Of a stretch of 64,000 bases of DNA, positions 2,579 to 46,019 are shown piece after piece. The notes below the pieces were generated by a model. The model saw only the letters and a program-made list of their open reading frames with translations, did no database searches and was not told the origin of the DNA. The stretch's first letter is position 1, and every line of letters begins with the position of its first letter. A program made the translations under genes and the position numbers. The stretch comes from an uncultured Candidatus Saccharibacteria bacterium (GTDB lineage Bacteria; Patescibacteriota; Saccharimonadia; Saccharimonadales; SZUA-47), in assembly GCA_964419675.1 (NCBI GenBank), contig CAYQPN010000004.1, forward strand, positions 11,001 through 75,000, given 5' to 3'.

Positions 2579-3640
2579 ATGGCTATATTCTACACAGACA
2601 AACCAGTATTTGGATTCGACATTGGACGAAGCTCCATTAAAGCTATTCAGATTGACCAAATTGGTAAAAAGGCCGTAGTCAGTGGCTACGGTACTGTTTC
2701 GTTTGACCCAAAAGCCGTCGACAAAGGAGTCATTGTTGATCATGAAGTTATTATCAAAGCCGCATACGAACTATTGACCAAACAAATTGTCGGAAGGATA
2801 ACAACTAGAGACGTCGCTGTATCGCTTCCTAATGCCCATAGTTTCAGCCGGGTAGTTACTCTACCTAAAATGGACGGCAAGGACCTAGACGAAGCTGTTA
2901 CTGCTGAAGTCGACCAGTCCATACCATTGCCTATTGACGAGCTGTATTACGACTACAGTGTTGCTAGAGAGCTTGAGGACGGAAATATTGAAGTCCAGCT
3001 TGTTGCCTCTCCTAAAACAATCATTGAGTCTTATATGAAGGTTTTTAATGCTCTTGGGCTTAACGTCGCCCTGATTGAGTCAAATATTACGGCAATGACT
3101 CGTATAGTTGTTCATGCTGAAGCTCACGATGTTAACACGCTTATTGTAGACGTTGGATCCACTTCTTGTGACATGTCAATTTACGACGGCACAGCTATCA
3201 GAGCAACTGGAACGGTTGACTGCTCAAGCGAACGAATTACCCAAAATATTGCCGATAAGCTGGGCGTCAGTTTGCAACAAGCACACAGTATCAAAACCCG
3301 TTACGGATTAGATTCTAGTAAAAAACAAGACGAGATTATCAAAGCCACAGAACCAGAGCTAAACAAACTAGTTAACGAGATACGTAAGGTTATGCGCTAT
3401 TTCACAGACAGAGATAATACCAGCGGGCCTATCGGTCAAATTATTATTTTAGGCGGTGGCGCCAACTTGCCTGGTCTTAGTGGTTATATAACAAATAGAA
3501 CCCGTGTTGCAGCCAGGTTATGCGCCCCATGGAACAATCTCGATTTCGGAAAACTTCAGCCACCTCATGAACTAGAATCTACGCTATACACTACCGCAAG
3601 CGGGCTTGGCCTAGTTACTCCGCAGGAGATAGCAAGATGA
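2579..3640 (+). CDS. pilM: Type IV pilus assembly protein PilM (actin-like ATPase fold)
   Basis: This 353-aa protein has an FGFDIGRSSIKA N-terminus and an ILGGGANLPGL motif typical of PilM/FtsA-like proteins. It is followed by pilN. Confidence 0.85.
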   Translation: MAIFYTDKPVFGFDIGRSSIKAIQIDQIGKKAVVSGYGTVSFDPKAVDKGVIVDHEVIIKAAYELLTKQIVGRITTRDVAVSLPNAHSFSRVVTLPKMDGKDLDEAVTAEVDQSIPLPIDELYYDYSVARELEDGNIEVQLVASPKTIIESYMKVFNALGLNVALIESNITAMTRIVVHAEAHDVNTLIVDVGSTSCDMSIYDGTAIRATGTVDCSSERITQNIADKLGVSLQQAHSIKTRYGLDSSKKQDEIIKATEPELNKLVNEIRKVMRYFTDRDNTSGPIGQIIILGGGANLPGLSGYITNRTRVAARLCAPWNNLDFGKLQPPHELESTLYTTASGLGLVTPQEIAR

Positions 3641-4266
3641 TTAATTTGCTCCCAACTGACGAACTCGTAGAACGAAAGTATGGTAGACGCAACAAGATTC
3701 TGGCAAGTTACGTAGCTTACTTGTTAGTAACTGCTGGACTTGTTGCGTCAATACTTGTTGGCAGTTTACGTTTTGTTGGTTCTAACGAGCCACTTCTCCG
3801 TAAACAGCTGGAAGAGAATGAAGCGCAGTCAGCTATATTGGAGTCAAAAGTAGCGGAGTTGGGCAAAGTCACGCAACGCCTAACAACCACAAACAAACTC
3901 TTCGATAGTGCTATATCTTTCTCAGAACTTATCCCAAAGATAGGAAGTTTGTTGCCTCAAGGATCTATTCTTAACGGTTTATCATTAAATGGAGGCAAGA
4001 CTGATCCTTTATCACTTGAAGTTGATTTATACAGTGCTGATCTAGCTCCAATATTGCAAAGTAATTTAATAAACTCTGACCTGTTTGAAGCAGCTGACAT
4101 CAACTCAATTACGAGCATTGCTGACGATACTAGCGTTTATAAGTTTTCAGCATCTGTTTCAGCTAGTTTTACTGGATCAGCCGATGCAAAAAAGAAAATA
4201 GCAGCAGCAGCCGCAGCAGCAGAAGCAGCGGCAAAAGCAAAAACAGATTCAGGGAGCACTAAGTAA
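3637..4266 (+). CDS. pilN: PilN-like pilus assembly protein
   Basis: It has the MINLLP N-terminus and a single TM followed by a coiled coil. The start overlaps the pilM stop. Confidence 0.7.
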   Translation: MINLLPTDELVERKYGRRNKILASYVAYLLVTAGLVASILVGSLRFVGSNEPLLRKQLEENEAQSAILESKVAELGKVTQRLTTTNKLFDSAISFSELIPKIGSLLPQGSILNGLSLNGGKTDPLSLEVDLYSADLAPILQSNLINSDLFEAADINSITSIADDTSVYKFSASVSASFTGSADAKKKIAAAAAAAEAAAKAKTDSGSTK

Positions 4267-29719: not shown

Positions 29720-29738
29720 ATAACAAGATTATACATGG

Positions 29739-30644
29739 CTAGCTGATGCTTTTTAGAGTAACCTTAGATTTTTCTGAAATTAGTACCCACTGCCCGTTAA
29801 CGTCTGTTTGTTTACCCGGCAACATAGTTTTAATAGCCAAAGTTAATCGCTCGACCATTTTTTTATCAATATCTTTGACTCCGTTTTCAAATAGATAGCT
29901 GTAAGTAATCTGTTTTTGAACAATATAGGGCATAATCACAAATGGGTAACGGTTCAAACTTAGTCCAGTAAAATTTTGCATTAAGAAAAGTTTAGTCAGA
30001 TAATCTAGCTCTGAGTTCACTTTTACAGCTGCCCTGTGAATTGCCAACAATTTTGACCTTGAAGTTACAAGTTTGGGCATAATATTATGTCGCACGTGGT
30101 TACGTAAATATGCGTCATCGCTATTAGTACTGTCTTCTCGCCATTCAAGCTGATTGTCTTTTGCATACTTTTCAAGCTCTGGTTTTGTCTTATTAATAAG
30201 TGGCCTTAGTATGTTTGGGCGCTGAAATGGTACCAAACCCTTAATTCCCGTCCCCCGCATCAAATTTATAACCATTGTTTCAAGCAAATCGTCCTGATGG
30301 TGTGCGGTAATAATTTTTTCGGCTTTGTGTTTAATCCTTTGTCGCTCCAAAAAATCATATCTGGCGTCGCGGGCATTTGCCTCACTTACGTCTTTGCCTA
30401 ATCTTCCTGATTCCGTTTCAAATTTTAGTCCGTATTTTTTGGCAAGACTTTTGACAAGCTTTGCATCTTCAGCTGAATCTTCTCTTATACCGTGATCAAA
30501 ATGGGCAACTACGTAGATCGGCGACTTAAGATTGAGGGTTGAGGATGTTCTAGCTTCTTCAAGCCGTGAAACTAATTTGTGGAGCAAAACAACAGAATCC
30601 ACCCCTCCGCTTACAGCTACAATATATGTCTGTTCCGTTTTCAT
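29739..30644 (-). CDS. tilS: tRNA(Ile)-lysidine synthase TilS
   Basis: It has the PP-loop SGGVDS and overall TilS N-terminal domain colinearity. It sits upstream of ftsH, as in many bacteria. Confidence 0.88.
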   Translation of the reverse strand: MKTEQTYIVAVSGGVDSVVLLHKLVSRLEEARTSSTLNLKSPIYVVAHFDHGIREDSAEDAKLVKSLAKKYGLKFETESGRLGKDVSEANARDARYDFLERQRIKHKAEKIITAHHQDDLLETMVINLMRGTGIKGLVPFQRPNILRPLINKTKPELEKYAKDNQLEWREDSTNSDDAYLRNHVRHNIMPKLVTSRSKLLAIHRAAVKVNSELDYLTKLFLMQNFTGLSLNRYPFVIMPYIVQKQITYSYLFENGVKDIDKKMVERLTLAIKTMLPGKQTDVNGQWVLISEKSKVTLKSIS

Positions 30645-31996: not shown

Positions 31997-32073
31997 TGGT
32001 AGCGGGAGTGAGATTTGAACTCGCGACCTCAGGCTTATGAGTCCTGCGCTCTAACCAACTGAGCTATCCCGCC
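31997..32073 (-). tRNA. tRNA-Met (anticodon CAU, elongator-like), CCA encoded
   Basis: It forms a cloverleaf with the CTCATAA anticodon loop, and its D-arm is identical to typical elongator Met. It has a G1-U72 pair and single mismatches in the anticodon and T stems. A hairpin terminator lies at 31963-31988. Confidence 0.8.
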
Positions 32074-38821: not shown

Positions 38822-38896
38822 CGCGGGATGGAGCAGCGGCAGCTCGCTTGGCTCATAACCAAGAGGTCCCAGGTTCGAGTCCTGGTCCCGCTACCA
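38822..38896 (+). tRNA. Initiator tRNA-fMet (anticodon CAU), CCA encoded
   Basis: CGCGGGATGGAGCAGC...CTCATAA closely parallels E. coli tRNA-fMet. It has the C1-U72 mismatch characteristic of bacterial initiators. A hairpin terminator lies at 38905-38930. Confidence 0.9.
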
Positions 38897-43768: not shown

Positions 43769-43896
43769 TGGTGGGGGTACCTGGACTTGTCATAATTTGC
43801 TCGCTCGAGAGCGCAAGCGCATCTCGCTCAGCCAAGCACAGAAAACTCATCCGCCTTGGGCGGATTCGACCCAAGGGTTCAAATCTTCTACAACCT
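43769..43896 (-). repeat. Divergent family A-like element downstream of tRNA-Ile2, ending in a duplicate of the tRNA 3' 21 nt
   Basis: Segment 43769-43789 equals 43934-43954 (21/21, C56 to CCA). The interior has a GAGA-GCG-CTTG-CGC-TCTC hairpin and a T-arm-like CCTTGGG-TCGAATCCG-CCCAAGG. Its own terminator is at 43739-43762. Confidence 0.6.
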
Positions 43897-43933
43897 CAAA
43901 TAAAAACAAACTCCAGTGGAGCTTGTTTTTATT

Positions 43934-44628
43934 TGGTGGGGGTACCTGGACTTGAACCAGGGACCAATCGGTTATGCGTACCACTACAGCTTTTGCTGCC
44001 TCTTTCGTGTTTGTGGTCTGGACTGTCTCTTTATCCGCGTATTTGCGGATACTTGCCATACAGTCTCTACACCTTACCAGCTTTTTTATAAACTGGGCTT
44101 GGCTCGGGATTACCACTCAGCCAGTTGGCGGATAGAGGCTTCCCCGAATTTGACAAGATATACTTACTGGTTACCCATGTAAGCAGCCCTTTAACTTTTT
44201 GACTTATCTATAGTATACTTCGGTTATGAAGAACAGGTCTAACTGTGCCGTGTGTAATAAAATTCTATCCGGCAAACAAACATTGTTCTGCTCCGTGAAA
44301 TGTAAAAATACACAGCACCAATCATACCCTGCTCAAAAAAAGCGCGGATTAAATCGAAAACTCTATTTTATAAGAGAGTTAGGAGGAAAATGTTCTATCT
44401 GCGGATATGCAAAAAATATTTCTGCACTGGCATTTCACCACATACACGGTAAAGAATTTCAACTAGATGTTCGTGCACTATCAAACCGTAAAATTGAACC
44501 TATACTTGAAGAGGTCGCAAAATGTAAGTTATTGTGCAATAACTGCCACGCTGAAATTCATAACCCAAATCTAGACTTAGCCAAATTGTTAATTGAGCCG
44601 ACTGCTCTAACCACTGAGCTATACCCCC
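43934..44628 (-). tRNA. tRNA-Ile2-like (anticodon CAU) interrupted by a group I intron in the anticodon loop
   Basis: Exon 1 (44628-44596) reads GGGGGTATAGCTCAGTGGTTAGAGCAGTCGGCT. Exon 2 (43976-43934) reads CATAACCGATTGGTCCCTGGTTCAAGTCCAGGTACCCCCACCA. Joined, they form a perfect cloverleaf closely resembling E. coli tRNA-Ile2. Confidence 0.88.
43977..44595 (-). mobile_element. Group I intron (IC3-like core) in the tRNA anticodon loop
   Basis: The minus strand contains GTCAAATTCGGGGAAGCC, CCCGAGCCAAGCCC and AAGGTGTAGAGACTGTATGGCA. These match P3/P7-region strings of the Azoarcus tRNA-Ile intron as I recall it. The 5' exon ends in U and the intron ends in G. Confidence 0.8.
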
Positions 44629-44642
44629 GTGATATTTCATAG
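44226..44642 (+). CDS. HNH endonuclease (putative homing endonuclease) encoded antisense to the intron
   Basis: It has CAVC...C..C and CSICG...AFHHIHG...N...LLCNNCHAEIHN (HNH with two CxxC pairs). The last ~15 codons run antisense through tRNA exon 1. A possible leaderless promoter is TTAACT-17-TATACT at 44191-44219. Confidence 0.85.
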   Translation: MKNRSNCAVCNKILSGKQTLFCSVKCKNTQHQSYPAQKKRGLNRKLYFIRELGGKCSICGYAKNISALAFHHIHGKEFQLDVRALSNRKIEPILEEVAKCKLLCNNCHAEIHNPNLDLAKLLIEPTALTTELYPRDIS

Positions 44643-44722
44643 CTCTCAAATGAGTATGAACAGATACAGTATACCAGAATGTGCTGTTTTCAACAGAGTG
44701 AATTGCATGAGATAATTAATTC

Positions 44723-45043
44723 ATGTCCAGCAGAATTGAAGTACATCGACCTCCAGAATCGGAGAAGTCAGGTGTTGAGATACTTAAAAAACGTGATGCT
44801 AAACTTGTAAAGTATGCTATTGGTAGACTTGCGACTGATTCCGTGAAAGCGAAAGCTGTTAAAGAGGCCCTTGCCCACCAAAATGTAAAACACGGAGTTG
44901 AAATTGAAAAACAACAACTTGAAACAGTCCAAAAAGCACTGGGCAAACTAGCAACTGAAAAAGGAATTACTAAATTACCTCAAAGATTCCGCTCTCGTCG
45001 CCTTTCCAGAAAATTGAACCTCGCCAAACAAGAGCTCGGCTAA
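44723..45043 (+). CDS. Hypothetical Lys-rich helical protein
   Basis: This 106-aa ORF has an ATG start and no recognisable family. Confidence 0.45.
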   Translation: MSSRIEVHRPPESEKSGVEILKKRDAKLVKYAIGRLATDSVKAKAVKEALAHQNVKHGVEIEKQQLETVQKALGKLATEKGITKLPQRFRSRRLSRKLNLAKQELG

Positions 45044-45993: not shown

Positions 45994-46019
45994 TCGTTGA
46001 ATTATATTGAAGAAAGATA

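Follow-up and report, generated by a model that had tools for sequence, protein, structure and literature searches.

The 64,000 nucleotides (nt) of contig CAYQPN010000004.1 analysed here (hereafter the window) come from an uncultured Candidatus Saccharibacteria bacterium. Their segment from 43934 to 44642 holds a tRNA gene with a group I intron in its anticodon loop, together with an open reading frame (ORF) for an HNH endonuclease on the opposite strand, which starts inside the intron and leaves the tRNA gene through the first exon. This arrangement had been proposed in a short annotation made from the letters of the DNA and a list of its ORFs (hereafter the sequence-only reading), and is followed up below with model searches, related loci and homologous proteins. 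The coordinates of all features are collected in Table 1.

Table 1. Features of the interrupted tRNA-Ile2 locus and of the distant tilS gene, in positions of the window.
Feature	Position	Strand	Basis
tRNA-Ile2(CAU) exon 1, positions 1-33, last base U33	44628..44596	-	33 nt; ARAGORN with introns allowed
Group I intron, 619 nt, IC3-like, between U33 and C34, terminal G at 43977	44595..43977	-	RF00028
tRNA-Ile2(CAU) exon 2, C34 to the CCA end	43976..43934	-	43 nt including CCA; ARAGORN
Extended -10 (TGgTATACT) of the tRNA gene, putative, about 40 nt upstream of the tRNA 5' end	44668..44676	-	inferred
Extended P1 hairpin, 5' arm: end of exon 1 and intron nt 1-24	44572..44600	-	RNAfold
Extended P1 hairpin, 3' arm, followed by the guide	44184..44210	-	RNAfold
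Internal guide sequence GGCUG, directly 5' of P2	44188..44184	-	covariation, 25 introns
Ribozyme core under the Rfam model	44211..44004	-	RF00028, covariation in the alignment
P2	44183..44163	-	
P3	44157..44152 with 44057..44052	-	
P4	44148..44142 with 44109..44103	-	
P6	44102..44072	-	
P7	44065..44061 with 44025..44021	-	
P8	44051..44032	-	
P9.0/P9	44017..43980	-	in part outside the RF00028 match
HNH homing endonuclease gene, 138 amino acids (aa)	44226..44642	+	ORF, PHROG match, homologues
Endonuclease cassette, terminal loop of the P1 extension	44211..44571	+	361 nt; comparison with L062
Promoter-like TTAACT-17-TATACT, ending 6 nt before the ATG	44191..44219	+	scan match
tilS (tRNA-Ile lysidine synthetase), adjoining ftsH	29739..30644	-	TIGR02432, 177 bits against a cutoff of 93.6; PF01171

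The interrupted tRNA gene

When introns are allowed, ARAGORN reports the gene as tRNA(cat) with i(34,619), in agreement with the exon lengths, the insertion after U33 and the terminal G given in the sequence-only reading, whose coordinates could all be verified; with its default settings the program misses the split gene. The joined exons form a clean cloverleaf of 76 nt with the anticodon loop CU-CAU-AA, and the best matches of the spliced tRNA in E. coli are annotated as tRNA-Ile (91% identity over positions 8-64), which bears out the Ile2-like identity suggested earlier. Two other tRNA(CAU) genes are present in the window, one of them initiator-like with a mismatched first pair (C1 mismatch, 38822..38896) and the other elongator-like (32073..31997), and the split gene is the only gene for an AUA-decoding isoleucine tRNA within these 64 kb. 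As had been noticed, tilS is located about 14 kb from the split gene, and it is identified by a score well above the cutoff (Table 1). Of the 370 isoleucine codons in 13 of the window's genes 102 are AUA, so that a decoder of this codon is needed. On these sequence grounds the interrupted gene is best read as tRNA-Ile2. The TGgTATACT upstream of it is probably the extended -10 of the tRNA gene, and a CTATACT motif is also observed upstream of the tRNA in two related loci (L001 and L003).

Ribozyme core and P1

The Rfam model for group I introns, RF00028, matches the minus strand over its full length with 76.4 bits (gathering score 50, E = 1e-17). The core pairings from P3 to P9, by which the sequence-only reading had proposed to judge its group I assignment, are present, and the three core strings that it quoted are found on the minus strand. 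Related introns were taken from a genome scan with a 26-nt exon-1 pattern, from a metagenome scan with a core pattern, and from Table S5 of a survey of tRNA introns (PMC13011429), which contributed two introns from Acidobacteriota. I aligned 25 tRNA(CAU) introns with an insertion between positions 33 and 34 (33/34), trimmed their P1 loops, and counted a hand-drawn P1-P9 structure on this alignment. Of all cells 91.5% are paired, whereas shuffles give 78.8% and sliding of the partners gives 32-46%, and both-sided changes occur in 40 of the 61 pairs, a number that was reached by none of 500 shuffles. P3 is paired throughout (100%) and shows such changes in all six of its pairs, while the fifth pair of P7 appears as four types (G-C, U-A, A-U and C-G); covariation is also seen in P8, in P9.0 and in both P9 hairpins. 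The G-C pair of P7 is invariant, as are the terminal G of the intron and the CAUAA that follows it (25 of 25). Taken together, the sequences support the full P1-P9 structure by covariation across these related introns. The subgroup label is taken from likeness, as the window intron hardly differs in its core from introns that Table S5 of the same survey assigns to IC3, and the architecture, with a single P2, a short P5 and a two-hairpin P9, is compatible with IC3.

The guide sequence pairs with C29-U33 of the exon, and the pair between U33 and G44188 marks the 5' splice site; this U33-G pair is found in all 25 introns. Exon position 31 covaries with the guide, the pair being G-C in 20 sequences and A-U in 4 sequences of the Acidobacteriota type, and AGGGCUGC is invariant among the introns of the Patescibacteria type. 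The sequence-only reading had put forward another, weak P1 of 4 base pairs between GGCU of the exon and GGCU at intron nt 14-17. The intron tetramer exists, but covariation places the guide elsewhere, and in relatives the tetramer reads AGCU, AACU or AUCU, so that the U-G pair would be lost and this P1 is ruled out. The tetramer pairs instead with AGUCAAA or GCCAAA, as part of stem P1b of a long P1 extension. The stems of its 5' arm are P1a (UUAAC), P1b (UUUGGCU) and P1c (GUCUA), which are matched in the 3' arm by UAGAU (P1c), AGUCAAA (P1b) and GUUAA (P1a). According to RNAfold this three-step hairpin folds alike in 14 loci of four lineages that differ in sequence, with z-scores against shuffles from -2.3 to -6.2 (six of the 14 loci). 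The opposite strand of the 5' arm encodes residues ...LDLAKLLIEP of the endonuclease ORF.

The endonuclease gene

The position of the endonuclease gene within the intron becomes apparent from a comparison with L062, a Saccharibacteria contig with tRNA exons identical to those of the window and a 255-nt intron without endonuclease gene. A BLAST alignment of the two covers only 43934-44209 and 44574-44629, and the gap therefore delimits the cassette to about the coordinates in Table 1. In the window the cassette loop is closed by GUCUA/UAGAU. It contains the -10 box and codons 1-116, and the last 22 codons begin in the 5' arm of P1 and run across the splice site and exon 1 into the upstream flank. 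The gene thus sits in a peripheral loop of the intron, and L062, which is without the cassette, keeps the remaining intron.

The predicted protein consists of an N-terminal zinc ribbon with four cysteines (CxxC...CxxxC) and an HNH core with two CxxC pairs. The motifs on which the sequence-only reading had based the antisense HNH assignment are all there (C56xxC59, C104xxC107, FHH at 70-72 and CHAEIHN at 107-113), and C56, C59, F70, H71, H72, N87, C104, C107, H108 and H112 are invariant in 27 aligned homologues. Family searches give a mixed picture of its membership. The best matches are two PHROG families named HNH endonuclease (phrog_2255, E = 2e-20; phrog_3106, E = 1e-18). An NCBIfam search of the window protein gave no HNH match, a Pfam scan of the 27 homologues gave only zinc-finger families below threshold, and nothing was found when PDB sequences were searched with a hidden Markov model of the endonuclease. 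There are 225 homologues at E <= 0.001, the best 120 of which are 66-100% identical to the window protein; in the few cases among these 120 where a source is named, it is Candidatus Saccharibacteria. The wider family comprises 2,072 cluster representatives at E <= 1e-10. Five intact copies differ by a pN (nonsynonymous) of 0.14-0.18 and a saturated pS (synonymous) of 0.75-0.93, which gives a pN/pS of about 0.2, and the combination of low pN and saturated pS indicates that the gene has long been kept by selection. Judged by its sequence, then, the 138-aa ORF is under purifying selection and probably encodes an HNH endonuclease.

A comparison with intron-encoded endonucleases, as proposed in the sequence-only reading, gives, across the HNH core of 63 residues, 48% identity to an HNH protein encoded on the sense strand of a Paceibacteria tRNA-Asn intron, and free-standing phage genes annotated as HNH endonuclease reach 34-48% identity. 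The best-scoring cluster representatives (P0121-P0126) are proteins of 250-360 aa with two to four tandem zinc-ribbon HNH modules.

That the ORF reads through exon 1 had been pointed out before, and this is indeed the case: its stop codon ends 14 nt past the 5' end of the tRNA, and codons 124-135 are antisense to exon 1. The conserved body of the protein is formed by residues 1-121, while the splice site, exon 1 and the 14-nt flank, read in antisense, encode residues 122-138, and this tail has a predicted local distance difference test score (pLDDT) below 50 in the AlphaFold2 model. Most homologues continue with IEPTALTTEL, encoded by exon 1 in antisense, and from there on diverge completely in sequence and length. 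However, in about one tenth of the close homologues (for instance P0084, which is L003, and L112) one extra base near the start of the intron leads to a stop at a TGA across the splice junction, with conservation otherwise equal, and in other lineages the endonuclease ORF has its end at the junction or still inside the intron. Since the ORF of some homologues goes no further than the splice junction, the read-through looks like an unselected by-product of the lack of a stop codon, and the 17-residue tail encoded by the exon is probably incidental instead of a functional overlap.

Owing to the antisense orientation of its gene, the protein cannot be translated from the RNA of the intron. The promoter-like TTAACT-17-TATACT described in the sequence-only reading is present, and no Shine-Dalgarno sequence precedes the ATG. 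Its -35-like hexamer and the spacer fall within the 3' arm of the P1 extension, the -10 box inside the cassette. By eye, a -10-like box is found 6-8 nt before the ATG also in L001, L003, L004, L082 and L112, which are all the endonuclease-bearing Saccharibacteria loci inspected for it. The same layout recurs in the window, where 27 of the 60 long ORFs lack a Shine-Dalgarno sequence and show TAnnnT, in many cases TATAAT, 5-9 nt upstream of their first ATG, ftsH, tilS and dus among them; another 17 of the 60 have a Shine-Dalgarno sequence. Leaderless starts thus seem normal for many genes of this organism, and it is plausible that the endonuclease mRNA is leaderless as well and starts from TTAACT-17-TATACT. 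Examples of -10 boxes of the leaderless type are located at 29720-29739 before ftsH, at 45994-46013 before dus, and at 44716-44723. A transcript of the endonuclease gene would complement the pre-tRNA in its 5' part.

On the strand of the endonuclease, between the tRNA gene and dus, lies an ORF of 106 aa (44723-45043) without family match and with its own TG-extended -10 that ends 6 nt before the ATG; a 79-aa ORF occupies the same place in L001. The endonuclease transcript may continue into this ORF.

Distribution of the intron

The frequencies from the genome and metagenome scans are rough, and the figures refer to the matches listed. The exon-1 pattern gave 121 matches in 120 loci, 113 of which continue as intron-less CAUAA. 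Seven of the remaining eight carry an intron of the window type, one of these without endonuclease and one partly deleted, and the eighth match ends at a contig end. Among the intron-less genes, L024 and L106 have exons identical to those of the window. The three closest relatives by Dus (72-76% aa identity) all carry, between dus and divIC, a tRNA-Ile2 gene without the intron, in one case (L247) with a single base different from the spliced tRNA of the window. The intron-less alleles that the sequence-only reading had suggested to look for are therefore common in related genomes. No relative was found that is close enough to date the gain or loss of the intron, the nearest flanks being 65-70% identical at the DNA level and the nearest Dus proteins those mentioned above.

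The endonuclease gene is frequently damaged where it occurs. Frameshifts or stops are seen in L004, L033 and L213, and internal deletions have truncated the gene in L094 and L233. Antisense HNH genes in the same P1 loop are not restricted to the tRNA of the window; they are also found in Ile2 genes with other acceptor stems (L033, decayed, and L127, intact, both of the Patescibacteria type; L213), in an unclassified tRNA-like context (L159), and in an Acidobacteriota-like Ile2 gene (L145), of which L143 is the counterpart without endonuclease. The proteins of these other tRNA backgrounds are 48-59% identical to that of the window. A sporadic intron with a decayed or lost endonuclease is the pattern that would be expected of a homing element going through rounds of invasion, decay and loss.

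ARAGORN labels L127 and L213 as 'tRNA-Leu(taa)', which is an artefact; read again, both are Ile2(CAU) with an intron at 33/34. The odd exon boundaries arise because these introns start with UAAG, which makes this start an annotation trap for the 33/34 intron family.

L144 has a tRNA-Thr(UGU) gene with a group I intron of 246 nt, and some 85 nt upstream of this gene a free-standing HNH homologue of 113 aa is encoded on the opposite strand (393-734 and 819-1137 in coordinates of the extracted stretch). This arrangement may represent a stage before an endonuclease gene enters an intron. L049 has a partial duplicate of the tRNA-Ile2 5' half, up to CATAAT, 139 nt upstream of the complete gene (3460-3700), which is followed by GC-rich sequence without relation to the tRNA.

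Discussion

The explanation that I favour, with considerable though not full confidence, is that the locus is a mobile self-splicing group I intron of the IC3 type with an antisense HNH homing endonuclease, residing in the tRNA-Ile2 gene of a Saccharibacteria genome. A precursor of about 700 nt would be transcribed from the tRNA gene, P1 would arise from the pairing of exon bases C29-U33 with GGCUG, its U33-G wobble lying at the splice site, and the P3-P9 core would bind guanosine in P7, after which two transesterifications would join U33 to C34. In the spliced tRNA, TilS could subsequently modify C34 to lysidine and so provide the cell with its AUA decoder. P1 is extended by three stems, with the cassette for the zinc-ribbon HNH protein as the terminal loop; the protein is encoded on the opposite strand and would be expressed from its own -10 box as a leaderless mRNA. 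The enzyme would cut or nick an intron-less tRNA-Ile2 gene near the anticodon loop, and repair would copy the intron into it.

Several points weigh against this explanation. I infer splicing, the transcription start of the endonuclease and the cleavage of DNA from sequence, and promoter-like sites are no commoner in the region than in shuffles of it. PF01844 of Pfam does not match the window protein, and its relatives score 18-19.5 bits against a cutoff of 21.4. The AlphaFold2 model is poor (pLDDT 58 with a 27-sequence alignment, which is too shallow), and a Foldseek search of PDB with this model returned nothing at E < 1. P10 is weak in the window (AAG versus CAU). A second, intron-less Ile2 gene may exist beyond the 64 kb of the genome that are visible, and the sporadic distribution of the intron can be explained by vertical descent with repeated loss too.

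The last of these points could be developed into a different history, in which the intron passes down by vertical inheritance with repeated losses, and the HNH protein, no longer active in homing, is kept for a role at the level of the host or the intron, such as help in splicing or a nuclease function in defence or repair. Purifying selection despite saturated synonymous sites would be in line with such a long-kept gene, and as all hosts have a near-identical target, which in most of them is intron-less, homing could be rare; recombination between alleles also has few chances in Patescibacteria. However, the endonuclease is often truncated, frameshifted or deleted (L004, L033, L094, L213, L233 and L062), and such common decay is predicted by the homing cycle and is unlike a gene that the host needs. 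Moreover, the intron of L062 retains every core pairing without an endonuclease, from which it follows that the ribozyme is independent of a protein encoded in cis, and homologous pairs of endonuclease and intron are found in Ile2 genes whose acceptor stems differ strongly. I consider purely vertical descent unlikely for these reasons. Alternatively, the cassette itself could be the selfish element, which invaded an intron without endonuclease and targets the P1 loop and not the intron-less tRNA gene. Its antisense gene with a -10 box inside the cassette, the unrelated sense-strand PD-(D/E)XK endonuclease in the same loop of tRNA-fMet introns, the free-standing homologue beside the intron-bearing tRNA-Thr of L144, and the free-standing phage genes among its relatives all agree with such an origin. 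Yet an antisense HNH gene in the P1 loop is combined with an Ile2 33/34 intron in at least three divergent lineages, which fits long co-transmission as one unit, and the cassette alone at another site was seen in none of the loci examined. An independent cassette would explain the origin of the arrangement and is compatible with homing of the intron at present; as the explanation of the locus it seems improbable to me.

It could also be argued that the interrupted gene is dead, its intron unspliced, and that an intron-less tRNA-Ile2 elsewhere in the genome does the work. The limited view of the genome and the weak P10 would allow for this, and the antisense ORF and its promoter place additional constraints on P1. 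Against this, the window copy has all conserved pairings and catalytic landmarks intact, its exons match functional-looking intron-less genes (L024, L106 and L247), and it occupies the syntenic Dus-tRNA-DivIC position at which the loci of relatives keep their tRNA-Ile2. AUA is common in the genes of the window, and the probable extended -10 upstream of the tRNA is conserved in L001 and L003. A dead copy is hence very hard to reconcile with the locus, and I give this idea hardly any weight.

A separate question is whether the antisense layout of the mobile intron has a function of its own. The endonuclease mRNA would fully complement the first ~400 nt of the pre-tRNA, a stretch that takes in exon 1 and the 5' splice site together with the whole 5' arm of P1. 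Its promoter forms part of the 3' arm of the P1 extension, so that head-on transcription or pairing between the two RNAs might couple the expression of endonuclease and tRNA. If this were true, heavy transcription of the tRNA would silence the endonuclease, and transcription of the endonuclease would block P1 and throttle the supply of the AUA decoder. I regard such a coupling as a doubtful proposition. In a weaker form of this idea, the C-terminal tail encoded by the exon may aid in the recognition of the tRNA gene as target.

Directly downstream of the tRNA gene, an insert of 144 nt (43790-43933) is flanked on both sides by the same 21 nt of the tRNA-Ile2 3' end, CAAGTCCAGGTACCCCCACCA, one copy being located at 43934-43954 and the other at 43769-43789 (region 43769-43954, minus strand), and a terminator-like hairpin follows each copy. 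A homologous insert is observed in L248, a relative with an intron-less tRNA (~3072-3208), which shares with the window the core AGATTTGAACCCTTGGGTCGAA ... GAGTTTTC..TGCTTGGC ... CGAGATGC..CTCTCGAG, and which ends in a copy of the different 3' end of L248's own tRNA. Among the loci collected here and three further syntenic ones only L248 has the insert; it is absent from L062, L246, L247 and L249. An Rfam search at E <= 1 gave no match in the 144 nt. The insert may be what an integrated element has left behind, or else a small structured RNA.

Comparison with known systems

Nakagawa et al. (2026, mSystems, PMC13011429) surveyed the tRNA introns of complete genomes. The sequence-only reading had held the insertion at 33/34 to be unusual, which is not so: 33/34 is the site commonly found for introns in tRNA-fMet, and the Ile2(CAU) introns seen in Table S5 have it as well (PMC13011429), making it a usual site for introns in tRNA(CAU). 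All 12 tRNA introns longer than 500 bp in the survey encode endonucleases and none of these is in Ile2, no Patescibacteria tRNA intron is assigned to type IC, and antisense endonuclease genes are not mentioned (PMC13011429). Among the closest known counterparts of the window intron are the Acidobacteriota Ile2 introns of 243-244 nt (GCA_016700075.1 and GCA_016700175.1), which share with it the tRNA, the insertion site 33/34 and probably the IC3 subgroup and have no endonuclease gene (PMC13011429). Their core strings AAAUUCGGGGAAGCC, CCCGAGCCAAG, AAGGUGUAGAGACU and AGUCCAGACCACAAAC are nearly identical to those of the window, and their guide is in the same place and covaries with exon position 31. 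The window intron differs from them in its length of 619 nt, its host from the Saccharibacteria and its antisense HNH gene. The tRNA-Ile(CAU) intron of Azoarcus resembles it in a compact architecture of IC3 type in the anticodon loop, with GNRA-type loops capping P2 and P9, although with 205 nt it has neither an ORF nor a P1 extension. Its 5' exon ends in CAU, which would place it at 36/37.

Introns at 33/34 of tRNA-fMet belong to the same clade and carry a sense-strand PD-(D/E)XK endonuclease (PF11645, 167 bits) in the same P1 loop, which is intact in L134 and L171, and decayed in L124, L187 and L234, several copies being truncated remnants. The cyanobacterial tRNA-fMet intron of the I-Ssp6803I family is similar to the window intron in its site, its clade and the endonuclease in its P1 loop; its enzyme, however, is of an unrelated family and encoded on the sense strand, with the C-terminus running through the guide and P2, whereas the HNH gene of the window is antisense and its C-terminus runs through the 5' splice site and exon 1. 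Two such fMet introns with PD-(D/E)XK-type endonucleases are listed for Cyanobacteriota in the survey (PMC13011429). With PD-(D/E)XK in the fMet introns and HNH in the present one, a single loop has been colonised by two unrelated endonuclease families in opposite orientations. Patescibacteria tRNA-Asn(GUU) introns come from the same host phylum and encode a homologous HNH protein (48% in the core; 42% for L172), but they reside in another tRNA at 35/36, belong to subgroup IA and have the endonuclease on the sense strand (PMC13011429).

Antisense endonuclease genes are known from group I introns in nuclear rDNA, such as those at position L2066, where genes of the His-Cys box family are found (PMC9548176). 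In these introns too the gene is located on the strand opposite to the ribozyme, and this location requires expression signals of its own. They differ in that they interrupt eukaryotic rRNA genes, encode another endonuclease family and use features of pol II and spliceosomal expression (PMC9548176), and the resemblance is only one of working mode, by analogy, and not of membership. The protein itself resembles in its domain plan the zinc-ribbon HNH nicking endonucleases of phages, which combine an extra zinc ribbon with an HNH core of [CxxC]2 type; those described by Xu and Gupta (2012) are free-standing, located beside terminase genes and connected to DNA packaging (PMC3592412).

In the open-access literature I found antisense endonuclease genes only for the nuclear rDNA introns, and a bacterial case may have been published elsewhere. 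The parts of the present locus are all familiar, and what is new is their combination, of which I did not find a description for bacterial tRNA introns in that literature: an IC3 intron in a Patescibacteria Ile2 gene, with an apparently leaderless antisense HNH gene in its P1 extension whose ORF exits through the exon. The locus and its relatives extend the 2026 survey, as they indicate that draft genomes and metagenomes hold endonuclease-bearing IC3 introns in tRNA-Ile2, and since standard tRNA finders miss the split gene, genomes that carry it look as if they had no AUA decoder. The two-fold colonisation of one loop bears on how a ribozyme and a free-standing nuclease gene come together in a mobile intron. 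The locus could also serve as a compact test system for a bacterial endonuclease gene that has to be expressed antisense to the precursor of an essential tRNA.

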